Origin: a virus
Lineage: Duplodnaviria; Heunggongvirae; Uroviricota; Caudoviricetes
DNA length: 27,624 bases
Strand: one strand, 5' to 3'
Virus record (IMG/VR): IMGVR_UViG_2565956708_000008
The notes beneath the pieces are model-generated. The model had not been told where the DNA came from and did not search any database. It worked only from the letters and a program-made list of their open reading frames with translations. Of this stretch, positions 1-27,624 are shown piece by piece (position 1 is the stretch's first letter; the number at the start of each line of letters is the position of its first letter). Position numbers and translations under genes: made by a program.

Positions 1-1
1 C

Positions 2-95
2 GTTGACGGACTTCGGGGGAAAAACGAGTATTTTTAGTCATCCTGTTTACCTCTTTCTCAGGAAGTTTAGTCTCCAGGATTCCCGGGGCGGTTCA
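2..95 (-). mobile_element. IS3-family insertion sequence, left end (terminal inverted repeat plus start of orfA reading leftwards out of the window)
   Basis: Positions 2..95 are the exact reverse complement of 27531..27624. The element end is TGAACCGCCCCGGG... and the minus-strand ATG at 41 opens MTKNTRFSPEVRQ, which I recall as an IS629/IS1203-type OrfA N-terminus. Confidence 0.7.
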
Positions 96-808: not shown

Positions 809-1633
<825 letters not shown>

Positions 1634-2573: not shown

Positions 2574-4523
2574 ATGATTGTTCTAAATCAGATTAACTCC
2601 TCACTTTTGTACAATGTCGCTTACAGGTATACCATGAAATCCGAGACGCTAACTGTCCAACAACTTTTTCAAGACCGCCGACAATACTGTGTTCCATTCT
2701 ATCAACGTGCCTATGTATGGACTCAGCAAGACCAGTGGTCAGCTCTACTGGAGGATATCCTAGAGAAAGTACAATCCCGGCTCTCGGGTACAAAACCAAC
2801 TCCCCATTTCCTTGGTGCGGTTGTACTGGAACCTCAATCAAAAAAAGGATTATTAGGTGTAGATTCCATACATATTATTGATGGTCAGCAACGATTGACC
2901 ACTCTTCAATATGTTCTGGCATCCATCCGATTAGCATTACGTGCTACGGATCTTTCCAGCTTAGAGGCTCTCATTTCGCCTTGCCTGAAAAACTCAAACG
3001 AAGACACAATGCGAAATAAAGAAGTAGAACGCTTCAAACTGTGGCCAACTTTTCGGGATCAAACTCATTTTATTCAAAGTTTTAATGTTGAAAATATTGA
3101 CGATCTCCGGGACGTATTCTCTGATAGTTTCACGCAGCATGGTACGTTGCGTAAGCATTTTAATCACCCGCCATCACTAGAAGCATTATGTTTTTTTACT
3201 GAAGCCTTTATAAAATGGATTAAAATAGAAAACCACTCACCACAAGAAAATGCTGTAGCTCTAATTGAGGCTGTCTTAACAGATCTGAAACTGGTAAGCA
3301 TATTTCTCGAAGCTGAAGATGATGCCCAAATAATTTTTGAAACATTAAATGGGCGAGGGGCGGAACTTCATGCTACGGATCTTATTCGCAACTATATCTT
3401 TATGTGCGCTGAGCATGAAAATATTAATGCTATTGAATTATATGAAAATGAGTGGAAGAGCTTTGAAGATAAATACTGGTCGGAAAAACAACGCCGTGGA
3501 CGTATTAATAAACCACGCATGGAGTGGCTAGTACATGCGACATTGCAATCAGAAAGGCAACGTGAAATTGATCTGTCTCGCCTTTACAATGAGTATCGTG
3601 ATTATGTAAGTAAGGACTTGTCTTCACAACGAGCAGATCTGCAAGTAAAGCGCCTCAAACAATATGCATCACAATATAAAGAATTGGTTGATGGTTTTGG
3701 CACAACCCCCATCTCACACTTTGGATATCGCATCGCAGACTATGATGTGACGACACTTTATCCGCTTGCTTTGTTCATTTCGATAGCTAACATCGCTGAT
3801 GATGAGAAAGCAGCCATGTATAATGATCTTGTCTCCTACGTAGTACGAAGAGCCGTATGTGGCCTGACGCCAAAGAATTACAACAATGTATTTATGAATG
3901 TATTGCGGCACTTGGCTAAAACGGAAATTTCCAGTGTTGAGTTACGTAATATCCTCAATAACTTAAATGGCGAAGCCTCACGTTGGCCTGGTGACTCAGA
4001 ATTTCTCAACGCTTGCATCAATGCTCCACTTTATCCTGGCAGGCTCGACGCACCGAAAATGCGCTCAATGTTAACGGAACTTGAAAGAGAACTTTGTCGC
4101 CAAGTAAAGACAGAAAAGCCTGATGTTCCAAATCTTTCTAATCTCGATATCGATCATCTTATGCCTCAAAGTTGGTATTCCTGTTGGCCTCTCGAAAATG
4201 GTCGTATGGTGACAAATTCAGATGCTACGGTATTGAACCAAATTGTTCTGTCTGGAACCGATCTTACCCCTGAACAGCTACTGGTAAGGAAACGGCAACA
4301 AGCGATATCTACTTTGGGAAATCTAACTTTGCTTAACCTTAGCGTAAACCGTTCTGTTCAGAATGCTGTATTTCTGAAAAAACGTGATGCTCTCATCGTC
4401 CACACCAATCTACGACTGAACATTCCACTTATAGTTAAGGATAAATGGGATGAGGATGAAATCCTGGAGCGGGGTAAAAAGTTGGGGGAAATTGCATTGA
4501 AAGTATGGCCAAAACACGATTAA
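2574..4523 (+). CDS. GmrSD-like type IV restriction / defence protein (N-terminal DUF262 domain, C-terminal DUF1524 His-Me finger nuclease domain)
   Basis: N-terminal FYQRAYVWT and IIDGQQRLTTLQYVL (DGQQR signature of DUF262). C-terminal DIDHLMPQSW with downstream LGNLTLLNLSVNRSVQN. The start is more likely the internal ATG at 2634 (MKSETLTVQQLF...), which has an AGG 9 nt upstream. Confidence 0.8.
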   Translation: MIVLNQINSSLLYNVAYRYTMKSETLTVQQLFQDRRQYCVPFYQRAYVWTQQDQWSALLEDILEKVQSRLSGTKPTPHFLGAVVLEPQSKKGLLGVDSIHIIDGQQRLTTLQYVLASIRLALRATDLSSLEALISPCLKNSNEDTMRNKEVERFKLWPTFRDQTHFIQSFNVENIDDLRDVFSDSFTQHGTLRKHFNHPPSLEALCFFTEAFIKWIKIENHSPQENAVALIEAVLTDLKLVSIFLEAEDDAQIIFETLNGRGAELHATDLIRNYIFMCAEHENINAIELYENEWKSFEDKYWSEKQRRGRINKPRMEWLVHATLQSERQREIDLSRLYNEYRDYVSKDLSSQRADLQVKRLKQYASQYKELVDGFGTTPISHFGYRIADYDVTTLYPLALFISIANIADDEKAAMYNDLVSYVVRRAVCGLTPKNYNNVFMNVLRHLAKTEISSVELRNILNNLNGEASRWPGDSEFLNACINAPLYPGRLDAPKMRSMLTELERELCRQVKTEKPDVPNLSNLDIDHLMPQSWYSCWPLENGRMVTNSDATVLNQIVLSGTDLTPEQLLVRKRQQAISTLGNLTLLNLSVNRSVQNAVFLKKRDALIVHTNLRLNIPLIVKDKWDEDEILERGKKLGEIALKVWPKHD

Positions 4524-4567: not shown

Positions 4568-5644
4568 GCTACTCACTATTAAATACTTTAATTTGCATCA
4601 AGAACAGCAGTGTCAGCCCTAGGTCTCGGACTTTGTACCGCTTATCTTGTCTTCAAAAATCAGCTCGCATCCTGCACAGTTCAGCGCATTACGTTGTAGA
4701 TCTGTGTTCTGGTCATTTGTTGACACACGTACATAGCCAATAAGCATGGTAGATCTCCCTGACAAAAGCAGGAATGATGCCATTTGCTCGTTATTTCTGC
4801 ATTTTCATAAACGTTGGTTTGGGAGAAGGGGCAGCATGGCCTGTTGGTGAGGCTGAACAACAACCTCCAGACACGTCGCCCTCAAGCGGTCCTGGATGCA
4901 ACGGTAATGTTGTTATTGCTGAAGCTGACGCGGTACTGACACAGGTTGATACGGCAAATATATGCCCCGCATTACGTGTTAAGGGAATTCGTGGCAATGA
5001 TGATGCGCTCAGCGTTTCTAAAAAGTCTGATATGCCGTCAGCAAAAGAGCCATTTGTAGTTCCTATTTATGTGCTGGTAGCTATCATCCCGGTATCTTTG
5101 ACCGCTTAAGGTGGTGAATCTAGCGATACAGCAGGTTCTGGCTCGACCACTGTTAGCATTTCTGCCACTGTCGGTGGTAACAAGACCGTGGCGTGTACAG
5201 TGGCCGATACACTGATCGATACCTTTCCTTCAGACATCGCCTTTAACTCGATCGTGAGAGCAGGATAATGGATAACGCAGTATTAAATAGTGGCGTAAGT
5301 ACAAGTATTTCACTGCATAAAATGTTTTCTGAATATGATGGTGCAACAAGGGTTCATGTTGCCACTATAAGAGAATCTCGTGCCACTGGTGAGGGATTTC
5401 CGGCATTGCCTCCTCAGGGGAAACAAGTTGTACCTAAGGGTTCTGAACCTATATGATGGACTAATAATCCAACTCCTTCAAAATAGGTGGAAGAGCAGAG
5501 GGCTGAAATGAACTAAAAAACTTTAGCGTCAGAATCAAAAAACATCACCAAAACCCATGAGTACCCCGGCAATACAACCACTAGTCCCCTAATAAGCGAA
5601 TAACTTACGTAGGATGATTCGTGGCTGGAGTATCAGGCCGAAGT

Positions 5645-5916
5645 GCAGCAGAGCGACACTGTCTGTGCGGCAGAAGTACAGCGTCCGTCGCTTATTGATG
5701 CTCCGGTCAGATGCAATGCTCTGCTTTAGCGGAAATTGTTGGCGTGACCGCGGCAATGGCATGCAGAAAAGAGCTAACTCAACTCTTTTCTGCCTGCAAC
5801 TGATGCGGTCAGGGCAACAATTACAACTGAAGCGGAGGGAGGGATCTGACCGCAACTTCAAGCAGCGTATGACGCTCTATTTCTGCCGCACATGCTGTGT
5901 CGACATGCTCTGCTGC
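5645..5916. repeat. long imperfect palindrome of about 270 bp, two roughly 75 percent complementary arms around a perfect central hairpin
   Basis: GCAGCAGAGC at 5645..5654 is the reverse complement of 5907..5916, and the arms share blocks such as TGTGCGGCAGAA and GGTCAGAT. The central hairpin at 5763..5793 is GCAGAAAAGAG, loop CTAACTCAA, then CTCTTTTCTGC. Confidence 0.6.
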
Positions 5917-6287
5917 GTCCTGAGACACCAACTACGAATTATACTATGCAACGTCTTCGCTTTTTAGGCGAACAGTAGCTGTTTTTTCGGGCCACTGATC
6001 CGTTTTTGTGAATTTATTGAATTCTGAAACTACAGTGATTTTTACGATTTCACCCGTAAGCACCGCCACATCTTTCGAAGGAGGTAAGTTAACAGACCGT
6101 CAGGGACGTCAACCACCCTCAGCTCCAACTGCTGCCCCTAGTGGGTAAAAAGCCAGAAATCCATCACATGCTTCTATGTTTACATCAATAATGTCAACAG
6201 GAAGCCTTCTCGCACCATCATAGTCTTGAAACATTATTTGCAGAGCATATGTTTTAATACGTCGACAAATTAATACTGAGTTCACTA

Positions 6288-6485
6288 TTACCGTGCAATG
6301 ACGAAATATTTAACTGCAGTGTTTCGTGGAAGGGTTTCGATGAGGTGTTTGTCGACTTTACCCAACATGGAATGATTCTTACCGTCGGCAACAAAAATGC
6401 AACCCGCGGTCGCGTAAATCCCTGTTGAATTACTGAATATAGCACCATAGCCGCTCGTTGATCCCAAAAGGATAGCGCCCAGCAC
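6288..6485 (-). pseudogene. tail fibre distal segment, in frame with the upstream tail fibre gene but separated from it by an amber codon
   Basis: Same frame as 6486..7031 and continues immediately after TAG at 6486..6488; encodes GSTSGYGAIFSNSTGIYATAG, typical Gly/Ser/Thr-rich fibre sequence. Confidence 0.4.
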
Positions 6486-7031
6486 CTAAATAGTACCTAC
6501 AGAGGGCAATTTTGTTGAGAGCATATAAGACTTATAATCACCGCCGCTGGCATCAGCCCAACCAGTCATTCCATCCACCGGTAATTGACCCCATATATTT
6601 GCAGGAACAGTCTGAGCCATTTGCGCGTCAGGTTGACCAATCAAAACATCTCCGTTGCCTTTCGTCAACGTTGATAACGACGTGGCAGAGATTCGTGTTT
6701 CCGGCACGCCCACAGTTCGTTTTGCGGCTTCTCCCAAACCAAGGTTTTCGAGAGCCGTTTTCACCGTGCCGTCCGATTTGATATCGCTAAACGGATTCTT
6801 GCGGCTTAACAGCAGCGCACGAAGCGCGGTAAGCAGCTGGTCGTGCCGCGCCTTCTCCAGACTGGCACCGGATGCCTCCACCACGCTGCAGAGTTCTTCC
6901 TGCAACATGTCAAAGTAGTCATCATCCAGATCGGTGGCAGGCGTGCCTGTCTGGGGGTTACCACGGGTAAAACCGTTCTTACCCGCGCCGAACTTATCCT
7001 TCTGCGCGGTTTTCGTGTCTATACGATGCAT
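6486..7031 (-). CDS. tail fibre protein, N-terminal (constant) part; apparently truncated by an in-frame TAG
   Basis: Position directly after the baseplate genes; Mu S / e14 StfP-like N-terminus ([21 protein letters not shown]...) by recollection. Confidence 0.6.
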
Positions 7032-11108: not shown

Positions 11109-12074
11109 CTACCCCACTGTGGCATTCTGCATCACCGCGGAAGTTGTGGGCGCAGGCAATCGTGTGACGGCATACGCCGCTTCGCTGATTGCGGTCGTAC
11201 GAAGGGTGCTGGCAACCACGTTACGCTGCTGCGTCGCCGTGGCGGTGGTTTTACTGTCCGTTTTCCAGACGCCGCGCGGTTGCAGATCGCTGCCGAGGCT
11301 GACACCGGAAAGCGTTTTGATCATGGTGACCAGGTCGCTGGCGTTACCATAAAGGCGTTTCCCGGTACGCCACATTTTCTGCACCTGCTCAACGAAATTT
11401 TTGCCTGACGATGGCGGCGGCAGAAGTACCGAGATATCCCCCTGCAACAGCCTGGCGGCATCCGATACGGCAGAATCCACCACTTTCATCGCATCAGAAA
11501 CATACCCAAGCATTGTGCTGGCATTACCGACGACGTCGTTCTGCACAAAATCTGCCACGCCATCGATACTGAAACCACTGAAGCTGTCACTGATGCAGTC
11601 ATCCAGTGCAGAACAGGATGACATCAGCGTCTGCGCCGTCGCCGCACCTGAAGTGGGGTAAGAGAGTTCTCCCGCTTCGACAAACTTCAGGTCAAAGCGG
11701 ACAATACGCCCTTCACTCTTCGATGTGCTGACCCGAACTTCCCCGTCAACACAGACTTTCAGCTCACCGTAAGTCGGATGGACAAGCGTGCCGGGACCGG
11801 GTTTATTCAGCGCGTCAATCAGGCGATCGCGCTGGTCAAAGCAGTCATCTCCCACCACATAAGCTGTGATGGACGGGCGGAAAGTGATTTTCCCCAGGTC
11901 TTCGGTATAGGGTTTGTCGCGGTTCGGGTATTCGTGCGTTTCCACACGACGACCGGTTCCCGCACTTTCTTCTTCAACCTTAAACGGCACACCGCGAAAT
12001 GACGCGTCCTGAAGTCTGTCTTTCCACGTCATATAAACTCCGTACATAAAAAATCCCACCGGAGTGGGACTCAT
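11109..12074 (-). CDS. DNA circulation protein, Mu gpN-like
   Basis: Contains MTWKDRLQDASFRGVPF near the N-terminus, which matches the Mu N family start as I recall it; located just after the tape measure gene. The true start is probably the internal Met. Confidence 0.65.
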   Translation of the reverse strand: MSPTPVGFFMYGVYMTWKDRLQDASFRGVPFKVEEESAGTGRRVETHEYPNRDKPYTEDLGKITFRPSITAYVVGDDCFDQRDRLIDALNKPGPGTLVHPTYGELKVCVDGEVRVSTSKSEGRIVRFDLKFVEAGELSYPTSGAATAQTLMSSCSALDDCISDSFSGFSIDGVADFVQNDVVGNASTMLGYVSDAMKVVDSAVSDAARLLQGDISVLLPPPSSGKNFVEQVQKMWRTGKRLYGNASDLVTMIKTLSGVSLGSDLQPRGVWKTDSKTTATATQQRNVVASTLRTTAISEAAYAVTRLPAPTTSAVMQNATVG

Positions 12075-24460: not shown

Positions 24461-24901
24461 ATGAGTATCCCCAGTTTAGATGTTCATAAAGTTGTTAAGT
24501 GCGCAGAGCATAAAAAGGCTTTAGATGCAATATCTCTCAAACTTAAGAATAACATTATTGACTCAAGCTCTGAATACGATTTTCTTGGCGACACAATAAT
24601 TTTCAATAAAGATAAAAAAAATAGGTTAACCCTCAAACTTTCAACATATGAACTAGAACTTATTTTCAAAGAAACACTGCTAGTCATTGATGAAGCTCCT
24701 GTATTGAAGTTTGCTGCCATTGACCCAACCGATGAAAATAACAACGAGCTGATTGATTTATTTTTATCCAAAGGTGGATTTATTTATATTAGAGAATACA
24801 AATCCGAGCCACATTATGAGTATGGCGACACTTCTCTATTTTTACATATACTTGACGCTACTCTTAAAGAGCTTAAATCTGCAAACAAAATATCCTATTA
24901 A
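24461..24901 (+). CDS. hypothetical moron protein, AT-rich, on the strand opposite to the phage late genes
   Basis: The track ORF is 24398..24901; AGGTGG sits 8 nt upstream of the ATG at 24461 (MSIPSLDVHK...). No recognisable motif. Confidence 0.45.
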   Translation: MSIPSLDVHKVVKCAEHKKALDAISLKLKNNIIDSSSEYDFLGDTIIFNKDKKNRLTLKLSTYELELIFKETLLVIDEAPVLKFAAIDPTDENNNELIDLFLSKGGFIYIREYKSEPHYEYGDTSLFLHILDATLKELKSANKISY

Positions 24902-25329: not shown

Positions 25330-25767
25330 TTAGTTGGGACATTGCGTCCTGATATACTCCTGCAAGTAATTGACCTGTGAGGTTATCTTGTCGATTCCAC
25401 TTCGGAGACGGTAATAATGGAGTTCAGCATCTGCTGTAAGTCTAGGGCTTTCTCCATCGCCCATGCCGCTGGCTCCGGTCGTTGACTTTGTACAGGTGGC
25501 GGCGACTTGCAGGCGCTTATGCCCAGCAGAAACATCAGCACGAAGACTTTCGATAGTCGCATTAGCATCAGCAAGCTCCTTTGTATATCTGGCATCGAGT
25601 TCAGCTACATTACGTTGACGCTTCTGCATATCAGCGATGATGGATGTGGCTTTATCGCGCTGTACTTTGTAGACGATGGCGTCATCACGGTAATTATCAA
25701 CAGCCCATGACAAGCAGACGATGATGCAGATAACCAGAGCGGATATAATCACCGTTACTCTGCTCAT
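25330..25767 (-). CDS. Rz: i-spanin Rz
   Basis: [23 protein letters not shown]... closely matches lambda Rz as I recall it; sits directly after the endolysin gene. Confidence 0.85.
25383..25568 (-). CDS. Rz1: o-spanin Rz1, embedded in the +1 frame of Rz
   Basis: Lipobox LLGISAC followed by a Pro-rich stretch ([12 protein letters not shown]), entirely inside Rz. The start is chosen at an internal Met; the track ORF runs to 25595. Confidence 0.65.
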
Positions 25768-26240
25768 ACCTGAATCTCTTTGACCGTTCCGCCGGCTTCT
25801 TTGAATTTTGCAATCAGGCTGTCAGCCTTATGCTCAAACTGACCATAACCAGCTCCCGGCAGTGAAGCCCAGATATTGCTGCAACGGTCGATAGCCTGAC
25901 GAATATCACCGCGATCAATCATCGGTAAAGCACCACGCTCTTTAATCTGCTGCAGTGCAACAGCATCCTGGCTTTTTGGAGAGAAGTCTTTCAGTCCAAG
26001 CTGTTTACGGTATGCATCCCACCAGCGGGAAAGAAGCTGGTAGCGCCCGGCAGCCGTTGATTTGAGTTTTGGGTTTAGCGTGACAAGTCTGCGAGGGTGA
26101 TCGGAGTAATCAGTGAATATTTCTCCGCCCACAATGACGTCATAACCATGATTACGTGTCGGTTGTAGCCCATTATCCGTTCCTTCTGACCAGGCCACCA
26201 TATCGAGGAAAGCTTTACGCTGAGGATTAAGATTTTGCAT
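25764..26240 (-). CDS. R: endolysin R, lambda-type lytic transglycosylase
   Basis: 158 aa; [18 protein letters not shown]...[10 protein letters not shown]... matches lambda R nearly residue for residue by recollection. Confidence 0.9.
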
Positions 26241-26631
26241 TTTTCACCCCTGTCAGTCGTTCCCAGAAGTACGTCAGTGCAACCGAACCCATCGCACCAC
26301 TAATCCCCGCAGTTGCGAGAATCATGTAAATACTGAATCCACTTTCGATACTGATTAGGCCACCAATAACACCGGTGAATCCTGATACAACTATCTGAGC
26401 GAGGGCATTTATCCAGCTCCACGTTGCTTTACTCTGCTTCACATCAATCAGGTAACGGACAAGCCCCCCCCAACCTGCGATGATCAGCAAAACAAGCCAG
26501 AACGCTCCGGCAAGATTCTCTTTTTCGTGCATATGAATAGCCGCAGTTTCGCCTCCGACAGAAAATCGGAGCGTGAAATGATATGTTGATTTATTATTAA
26601 TTCGAAAATTACATTCTAATTCATCAGGCAT
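26227..26631 (-). CDS. putative holin
   Basis: Overlaps the start of R; hydrophobic segments (AFWLVLLIIAGWGGLV, IVVSGFTGVIGGLI, ILATAGISGAMGSVAL). Not lambda S-like. The likely start is the internal Met MHEKEN. Confidence 0.6.
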   Translation of the reverse strand: MPDELECNFRINNKSTYHFTLRFSVGGETAAIHMHEKENLAGAFWLVLLIIAGWGGLVRYLIDVKQSKATWSWINALAQIVVSGFTGVIGGLISIESGFSIYMILATAGISGAMGSVALTYFWERLTGVKNAKS

Positions 26632-26683
26632 TGATGATTTTATAATAATAAAGGCCGTTCGTTACGGCCTTTATTATTGATAT

Positions 26684-27019
26684 TTATTTTACATCCCAAG
26701 GTAGTTCCTCAAGAGAGAAGACTAATTCATTATCAATAATTTCGTATTCTGCATAACCTTCAACCTCTCCTGAGAAGTTATTGTCAACGCATCCTTCATA
26801 ATAGCTATATGGTGCTATAAAGTGAAACCCATATTCATCTATCTCTGTGATTTCAAAATTGTAGTAATCGTAAGAATATCGAATATCATCATCAGAAATA
26901 GAACTAAGTACATAGTTATTAAATTTATCGGAATGCTTAACGATAAGTTCTGACAACGCGTCAAGATTCTCTGGAGAGATATTTCCTAACGGTAATCTGT
27001 ACTCAACGGCATTAATCAT
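26684..27019 (-). CDS. hypothetical acidic protein, 111 aa, moron between Q and the lysis genes
   Basis: AT-rich ORF with AAGGAGG before the ATG; very rich in D, E and Y; sits just downstream of the tR'-like terminator. Confidence 0.5.
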   Translation of the reverse strand: MINAVEYRLPLGNISPENLDALSELIVKHSDKFNNYVLSSISDDDIRYSYDYYNFEITEIDEYGFHFIAPYSYYEGCVDNNFSGEVEGYAEYEIIDNELVFSLEELPWDVK

Positions 27020-27073
27020 ACAACCTCCTTTTTAACTGATATGAGGTTATATAATGTGTTTCAGTACAAGTAA

Positions 27074-27096
27074 ATAAAAACCCGCTCAACAGCGGG
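27074..27096 (-). terminator. rho-independent terminator (tR'-like) on the minus strand
   Basis: Minus strand reads CCCGCT-GTTG-AGCGGG followed by TTTTT. Confidence 0.55.
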
Positions 27097-27144
27097 TTCG
27101 TGAAAATTATCAACGGCAGACATACAAAGCCCATCGTTGAGAAA

Positions 27145-27173
27145 ATCTTATCCATATTTTTTGAAAAATGCAA
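27145..27173 (-). promoter_or_regulatory. putative late promoter (pR'-like) downstream of the Q-like gene
   Basis: Minus strand TTGCAT, 17-nt spacer, TAAGAT, placed between the Q-like stop and the terminator. Confidence 0.3.
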
Positions 27174-27204: not shown

Positions 27205-27528
27205 TTATCTCGTCACCTTTCTCAATTGTGTTTCAGCATATGCTTCTTCCTGCCAGCACTTTGTTACTAGTTTATCAATTACGTCTGCATATCCTTTGTA
27301 CCACTGATAATCAGTCAGGTCTGGAACCAGCTTCTGGACATGACGTCGTGCCAGTGTAGTCGGTAAACGGCTAAACCGGTTTCCATTGCAACGCCCACAA
27401 GTCTTATAAACAGGCGTGCCATGAAGCCGGGTTCTTTTTTCATCCAGGACAATACCTTTACCCTTACACCCTCTGCACGCCGTGCTGACTTCTCCCTTGC
27501 CATGACAATGCTGACACAGTTCCTTCAC
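27205..27528 (-). pseudogene. Q-like late antiterminator candidate (zinc-ribbon protein), 5'-truncated by the IS insertion
   Basis: CxxCxGxG repeats (CQHCHGKG, CRGCKGKG) and CGRC; the frame stays open to the IS boundary at 27530 with no ATG (the first codon is GTG); sits upstream of the promoter, terminator and lysis genes. Confidence 0.35.
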
Positions 27529-27530
27529 CC

Positions 27531-27624
27531 TGAACCGCCCCGGGAATCCTGGAGACTAAACTTCCTGAGAAAGAGGTAAACAGGATGACTAAAAATACTC
27601 GTTTTTCCCCCGAAGTCCGTCAAC
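27531..27624 (+). mobile_element. IS3-family insertion sequence, left end (terminal inverted repeat plus start of orfA reading rightwards out of the window)
   Basis: TGAACCGCCCCGGGAATCCTGGAG... then ATG at 27585 opening MTKNTRFSPEVRQ; exact reverse complement of 2..95. Confidence 0.7.

Follow-up and report, generated by a model that had tools for sequence, protein, structure and literature searches.

The 27,624-nt stretch of viral DNA analysed here (the window) very probably comes from a 43-kb prophage that integrated at ssrA in E. coli, of which it represents the late-gene half; it carries a headless copy of the antiterminator gene Q that was left by an IS629-associated deletion of 13,884 bp. 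The parent would be an e14/SfV-like mosaic prophage whose control region is lambdoid, whose head is of HK97 type and whose tail is contractile, and the deletion would run from codon 143 of Q and stop within a cargo gene shortly before attR, with a copy of IS629 sitting at the joint. The product would be a remnant incapable of induction, excision, replication or activation of its own late genes.

At the right end of the window, on the minus strand, lies an open reading frame of 107 aa (27205-27528) whose earliest possible start in the list of open reading frames is a GTG. The frame continues without a stop past 27530 and for nine more codons into the adjoining insertion sequence, to a TAG at 27556-27558, and a search of the frame as far as that TAG found no ATG. 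The insertion sequence begins at 27531, so the boundary at 27530 and the open frame lacking an ATG that an earlier note on this DNA had reported are both exact. The ORF matched the Pfam family PF03589 ‘Antitermination protein Q’ with 110.9 bits (E = 3.4e-32) against a cut-off of 26.7 bits, and contained the whole of the 87-position Antiterm domain. Aligned with full-length members of the family, it covered positions 148-252 of 253 in PHROG 127 ‘anti-termination protein Q-like’ (E = 9.8e-46) and residues 116-207 of Q-lambda, which bears out the claim that the gene is truncated at the IS.

The intact counterpart is found in UTI89 as a 753-bp gene encoding 250 aa (WP_001047143.1), with DNA that runs uninterrupted across the position corresponding to window 27530. 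Up to that position the window agrees at 100% identity with UTI89 and about 128 other genomes, where the frame leads on to the 250-aa protein; the 107-aa ORF is residues 144-250 of WP_001047143.1, and its GTG is the internal codon Val144. What is left in the window (27205-27530, minus strand) is a pseudogene fragment of a Q-lambda-family antiterminator made up of two nucleotides of codon 143, codons 144-250 and the stop codon. RefSeq labels the same fragment in the E. coli genomes SCU-116, MS20673 and Eco_23-2678 as ‘antitermination protein, incomplete, missing N-terminus’.

The insertion sequence at this end is the left end of an IS629 element (27531-27624, plus strand), with its left inverted repeat starting at 27531. 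Its first bases read TGAACCGCCCCGGG... and, taken further, TGAACCGCCCCGGGAATCC...; an ATG at 27585 opens the transposase gene (orfA), and the window stops inside the element. The complete Q-side copy in SCU-116 is 1,310 bp long, is bounded by the TG...CA inverted-repeat ends TGAACCGCCCCGGG and CCCGGGGCGGTTCA, and is 99.5% identical over positions 1-1310 to LC567824.1, described as ‘IS3 family IS629’ and found among Stx-phage records. Its transposase is given in RefSeq as ‘IS3 family transposase, programmed frameshift’, with two overlapping ORFs. A second IS629 left end, in inverted orientation, occupies the other end of the window (1-95, minus strand) and is 100% identical to the Q-side copy, and both window ends (94 and 95 bp) are 100% identical to the complete copy in SCU-116. 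The second copy entered the homologue of UTI89_RS14400 by simple insertion and is flanked by a 3-bp target duplication. At the Q-side copy, comparison of the flanks with UTI89 revealed no target-site duplication; the sequences that abut the element, ...CACCC on one side and CGTAAGG... on the other, are separated by 13,884 bp in UTI89. Judged from these flanks, the missing duplication is the signature of a rearrangement and no argument against the identification as IS629, an element documented as inactivating genes and causing genomic deletions (PMC9943667).

The nature of the rearrangement became apparent from complete genomes. Over its last 1,025 bases the window matches three complete E. coli chromosomes at 100% identity, those of SCU-116, MS20673 and Eco_23-2678, while about 128 further genomes (UTI89, S88, IHE3034, APEC O18, NU14 and others) match at 100% only as far as 27530. 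Beyond the Q-side IS the three chromosomes carry 1.28 kb of flank followed by glaH-lhgO-gabD; in all three complete genomes with the junction, this flank starts in the interior of a cargo gene and passes through attR to glaH. The 5' part of Q, which the earlier note had suggested looking for beyond the other end of the IS, is absent from that position in each of the three.

Placed on the corresponding UTI89 segment (in its own numbering), the flanks of the SCU-116 element fall at 724 on the left and 14609 on the right, leaving 13,884 bp missing between them. The stretch that is present in UTI89 and deleted in the three genomes holds codons 1-143 of Q, the DUF968, KilA-N and RusA genes, genes for a LexA-family regulator, a methyltransferase and a PerC-like regulator, a helix-turn-helix gene in the replication-gene region, ymfL, the Cro-like ymfT, the CI-like ymfK, yfdP, yfdQ, yfdR, the integrase gene, and two and a half cargo genes. 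Past the deletion (UTI89 segment 15136-15218) the ssrA 3' end is repeated, which marks the retained attR, and because this repeat lies beyond the deleted stretch we regard the 43-kb element as a single ssrA-integrated prophage and the deletion as internal to it.

The left junction, the Q-IS junction and the junction on the right of the IS each occur in 3 of 5,426 complete genomes, always the same three, and the inner junctions lie 27,624 bp apart in all three, exactly the length of the window. Given that the same three genomes hold every junction at window length, we accepted the source genome of the window as sharing the deletion, and infer that the far side of its IS is arranged as in these chromosomes.

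A different arrangement could be imagined, in which IS629 simply inserted into Q, with the 5' part of the gene and the rest of the prophage intact beyond the element and Q the sole casualty. That the window takes in 94 bp of the IS and stops there is by itself compatible with such an insertion, and so is the frequency with which IS629 inserts into prophage genes (PMC3271280). We nevertheless consider it very improbable, given that all three junction genomes have glaH-proximal DNA beyond the IS and lack the 13.9 kb, that the target duplication is missing, that not one of the 5,426 complete genomes holds a junction without the deletion (IS629 simply in Q or simply in the cargo gene), and that the same three genomes share the left IS junction at the exact window length. 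The earlier note, in ascribing the loss of the 5' part of Q to the insertion, was right about the loss and mistaken about its cause: there was no simple insertion but a 13,884-bp deletion that left no target duplication and brought glaH-proximal DNA to the far side. A contig that ends inside an IS must not, then, be read as a simple insertion.

The IS629-associated deletion itself could have arisen in one step, as an adjacent deletion by the IS, or by recombination between two directly repeated IS629 copies; no intermediate occurs among the 5,426 complete genomes. Outside positions 4829-6727, three substitutions and one single-base indel in 25.5 kb are all that separate the window from UTI89, and with so few differences the decay of the remnant must be very recent. 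We also asked how many places in each of the three genomes match the IS end joined to the Q fragment, and counted 11, 13 and 13, the same as for the IS end joined to an unrelated flank; the equal counts are an indirect hint against a second close copy of this Q 3' region and late promoter in these chromosomes.

The interval between integrase and attR in UTI89 (segment 13114-14984), outside the window, contains a cargo block of three genes, encoding a hypothetical protein, a STAS-like domain protein and another hypothetical protein. Two of the three were lost in the deletion and the third was truncated. This block may be a defence locus.

The nearest known relatives of the truncated gene are lambda Q (PF03589; PDB 4MO1 and 7UBM) and the YdfT/QuuQ-type 250-aa homologues of E. 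coli prophages. Like lambda Q, with which it aligns end to end (E = 4.2e-39 against PDB 7UBM; residues 1-120 with lambda 1-125, 159-250 with lambda 116-207), the UTI89 allele has the zinc-ribbon cysteines; unlike lambda Q, it has, between the two aligned blocks, an insert of ~40 residues with extra CxxCxGxG knuckles, four in all. In Q-lambda, residues 1-44 refold with NusA to form a torus that narrows the RNA-exit channel, residues 61-113 and 153-207 form the body and residues 114-152 the zinc-ribbon arm, and removal of residues 1-38 abolishes antitermination (PMC9388147). The fragment lacks the counterparts of both the torus (lambda 1-44) and the body segment 61-113; its zinc-ribbon cysteine pairs are kept (CRGC and CGRC, aligning with CRDC and CGRC of Q-lambda); with residues 144-250 of 250, it falls short of the full-length architecture of torus segment, four-helix body and arm. 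Because the N-terminal nozzle segment and half of the four-helix body are gone, the Q remnant, as far as its sequence can tell, is a dead pseudogene consisting of the arm and the second half of the body. Antitermination activity is predicted to be absent, since loss of residues 1-38 suffices to abolish it in Q-lambda, and unlike the lambda gene the window copy, without its torus N-terminus and first body half, would provide no working Q.

Members of the family also have, 3' of the Q gene, a late promoter, its promoter-proximal pause element and a terminator, and all three are present here. Alignment of the reverse complement of 27215-27020 with lambda 44499-44759 assigned a putative pR'-like late promoter at 27145-27173 on the minus strand (TTGCAT-17-TAAGAT, against TTGACT-17-TAAATT in lambda), followed on the same strand by a pause element, CTCAACGATGGG, at 27130-27141 that matches the first bases of the lambda pR' transcript exactly. 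Within it is a -10-like AACGAT, which we take to be the site of the sigma-dependent promoter-proximal pause needed for Q loading in lambda. An intrinsic terminator with a 9-pair stem and then a T run occupies the tR' position (27072-27099, minus strand). The UTI89 allele resembles lambda Q in this respect too, lying directly upstream of the pR'-like promoter with its identical CTCAACGATGGG and then the terminator. A scan with consensus promoter sequences did not pick out the pR'-like pair and gave fewer sites than shuffled sequence; the same kind of scan found no promoter-like site directed out of the 94-bp IS end, and Rfam had no match anywhere in the window.

Between the tR'-like terminator and the holin gene sits an intact, AT-rich ORF of 111 aa (26684-27019, minus strand; 33% G+C) with a strong ribosome-binding site and a second hairpin terminator after it at 26643-26679. 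It belongs to PHROG 13663, a family of unknown function, and had no match in Pfam or PADLOC; the stx genes of Stx phages occupy this same position. The lysis cassette (25330-26532) lies downstream of the late promoter on the minus strand and comprises intact genes for a holin (26227-26532), a GH24 endolysin (25764-26240) and an Rz-like lysis protein (25330-25767), all three taken from the RefSeq annotation of identical DNA; in RefSeq the terminase, portal, head and contractile-tail genes come next, and these too have been kept.

With no cognate Q made, transcription from the pR'-like promoter would stop at the tR'-like terminator, and we infer that the late genes are silent. Induction and excision should be impossible as well, because the repressor, integrase and replication genes are gone: the CI-like ymfK, the Cro-like ymfT, the replication region and the integrase gene are all present in UTI89 and absent from the three genomes. 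No relevant induction data for the UTI89 ssrA prophage turned up in a literature search. That the prophage is defective, as the earlier note had proposed, stands. Of the grounds it gave, a tail fibre amber stop and a DinI frameshift fall away, and the Q truncation is only part of the defect: the repressor, Cro-like, replication, RusA and integrase genes have all been deleted with the rest of the early region.

Both additional clues were compared with complete genomes. The same DinI-like pseudogene is frameshifted in the full-length UTI89 prophage, so that it predates the deletion and has no bearing on it. The amber codon of the tail fibre frame (TAG at 6486-6488) lies within the stretch 4829-6727, which differs by 38% from all complete genomes. 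Comparing the 1,894 positions of this stretch with the genomic segment in both registers, we found that 633 match the direct register, 722 the inverted one, 539 both and none neither; with every base matching one register or the other, the stretch is explained as a consensus in which the two orientations of an invertible segment are blended. Pix-like inverted repeats, AAAC-TTGGTTTGGGAGAAG, flank this segment at about 4805-4828 and 6727-6750, and its inverted orientation occurs at 100% identity in IHE3034, APEC O1 and others. This points to a sequenced culture that held both orientations and to a consensus artefact, and on the same comparison the ORFs and stops inside 4829-6727, the tail fibre amber included, are to be regarded as artefacts and not as real features. 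We had considered whether 4834-6727 had been artificially randomised, in view of even, unbiased substitutions at 38% and the lack of indels, and rejected this because the bases fit the two orientations. The invertase gene adjoining the segment is a 123-bp remnant, for which reason a recombinase from elsewhere would have to act in trans.

A genuine amber codon does exist, in the baseplate region. Codon 308 of a ‘DNA circularization protein’ gene (11109-11111, minus strand) has changed from CAG to TAG, one of the three substitutions relative to UTI89 in 25.5 kb. The gene is intact in UTI89 and broken in SCU-116, MS20673 and Eco_23-2678, and the codon is a second inactivating lesion of the remnant.

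As for the accessory genes, the claim that intact ones were retained held up well. Two anti-phage defence genes are located at the tail-fibre end of the remnant: one for a GmrSD-type type IV restriction enzyme of 649 aa (2574-4523, plus strand; PADLOC mREase_IV, 1415 bits) and one for a PD-T4-3 GIY-YIG protein (809-1615, minus strand; PADLOC E = 8.5e-137). Both are intact.

One might also suppose that the Q fragment itself has been put to use. Translation of the 107-aa fragment could in principle occur given a transcript reading out of the IS, the GTG having a weak G-rich stretch 9 nt upstream, and one may picture a fragment expressed at a low level that keeps partial activity, such as binding to the Q-binding element or to RNA polymerase by way of its zinc-ribbon arm and C-terminal helices, and acts as a decoy against the Q of related incoming phages. 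The parts that remain are those that in Q-lambda, as arm (114-152) and body part (153-207), touch DNA, sigma region 4 and the polymerase zinc-binding domain (PMC9388147), which speaks for this reading. Half of the four-helix body is gone, however, making stable folding doubtful, neither a recognisable promoter nor a good ribosome-binding site is present, and the remnant is already gathering nonsense mutations, and we give the decoy very little credence. It is just as hard to credit the broader notion that the remnant is kept because it is useful, with either the decoy or the lysis cassette at work, the latter as a tripwire for a matching phage Q. The tripwire would consist of the Q-responsive late promoter, pause site and terminator, all intact, ahead of an intact lysis cassette in an element that has no Q itself. 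Were it true, the matching Q of an infecting phage would switch on the resident holin, endolysin and spanin and cause early lysis of the cell, and a tripwire or decoy function would accompany the GmrSD and PD-T4-3 defence genes at the other end.

Some phages do have short C-terminal Q-like ORFs annotated, as the family PHROG 19003 indicates: its members, phage proteins of 114 aa, match Q in the C-terminal part alone (positions 9-114). That the 107-aa ORF is likewise a complete and functional short Q-like gene, for which this family, the whole Antiterm domain inside the ORF and the available GTG could be cited, is scarcely credible when identical DNA in UTI89 and about 128 genomes encodes 250 aa with the GTG as an internal valine codon, when the homologues in Q-lambda and PHROG 127 are 207-253 aa long, and when the torus segment is absent and no promoter-like sequence reads out of the IS.

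Returning to the deletion remnant with its headless Q, we compared it with known cases. IS629 events in the prophages of E. coli O157 provide the closest setting, involving the same IS in prophages; IS629 is described in the literature as a major source of polymorphism, and here it is retained at a deletion joint without target duplication. Most IS629 copies (62%) lie inside prophages (PMC3271280, PMC9943667). Unlike in the O157 cases, the host here belongs to an extraintestinal B2-type lineage close to UTI89.

A further comparison can be made with events of the IS-excision enhancer (IEE) type. In most of these the IS is itself excised, but here it is still found at the joint.

The remnant also resembles the cryptic lambdoid prophages of K-12 (e14, Qin, DLP12 and Rac), being locked in the chromosome with part lost and some genes intact; several of the genes here bear e14 names (ymfK/L/T/Q/R and tfaE), and a pix-like invertible tail-fibre segment is present. 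It differs from them in being very young, with three substitutions in 25.5 kb relative to a full-length prophage, and in having kept the entire late region while losing the entire early region.

The event is ordinary prophage decay of a well-known kind, its pseudogene already entered in RefSeq, and it has little significance beyond careful bookkeeping. It does show, in a clean and very recent case, a 43-kb prophage reduced by one IS629 event to a locked late-gene remnant of 27 kb. In prophage surveys the element should not be counted as inducible, although its defence genes and lysis cassette are still intact, and the amber codon together with the three IS junctions can serve in strain typing as markers of a small clone, known from a human gut carrier, a human CSF isolate and a monkey.

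Two minor observations concern this clone. A 146-aa ORF (24461-24901, plus strand) had no match in Pfam or PADLOC, nor did an 82-aa ORF; the 146-aa frame is intact in the window and in SCU-116, and UTI89 lacks one A in it (base 24614) and has no gene annotated in the region. In SCU-116 the interval from ssrA to the left IS629 holds a different IS3-family element of ~1.3 kb (segment numbering 2937-4261), near ssrA/attL and outside the window; with this third insertion and the two IS629 copies, the clone carries three IS elements within one prophage.
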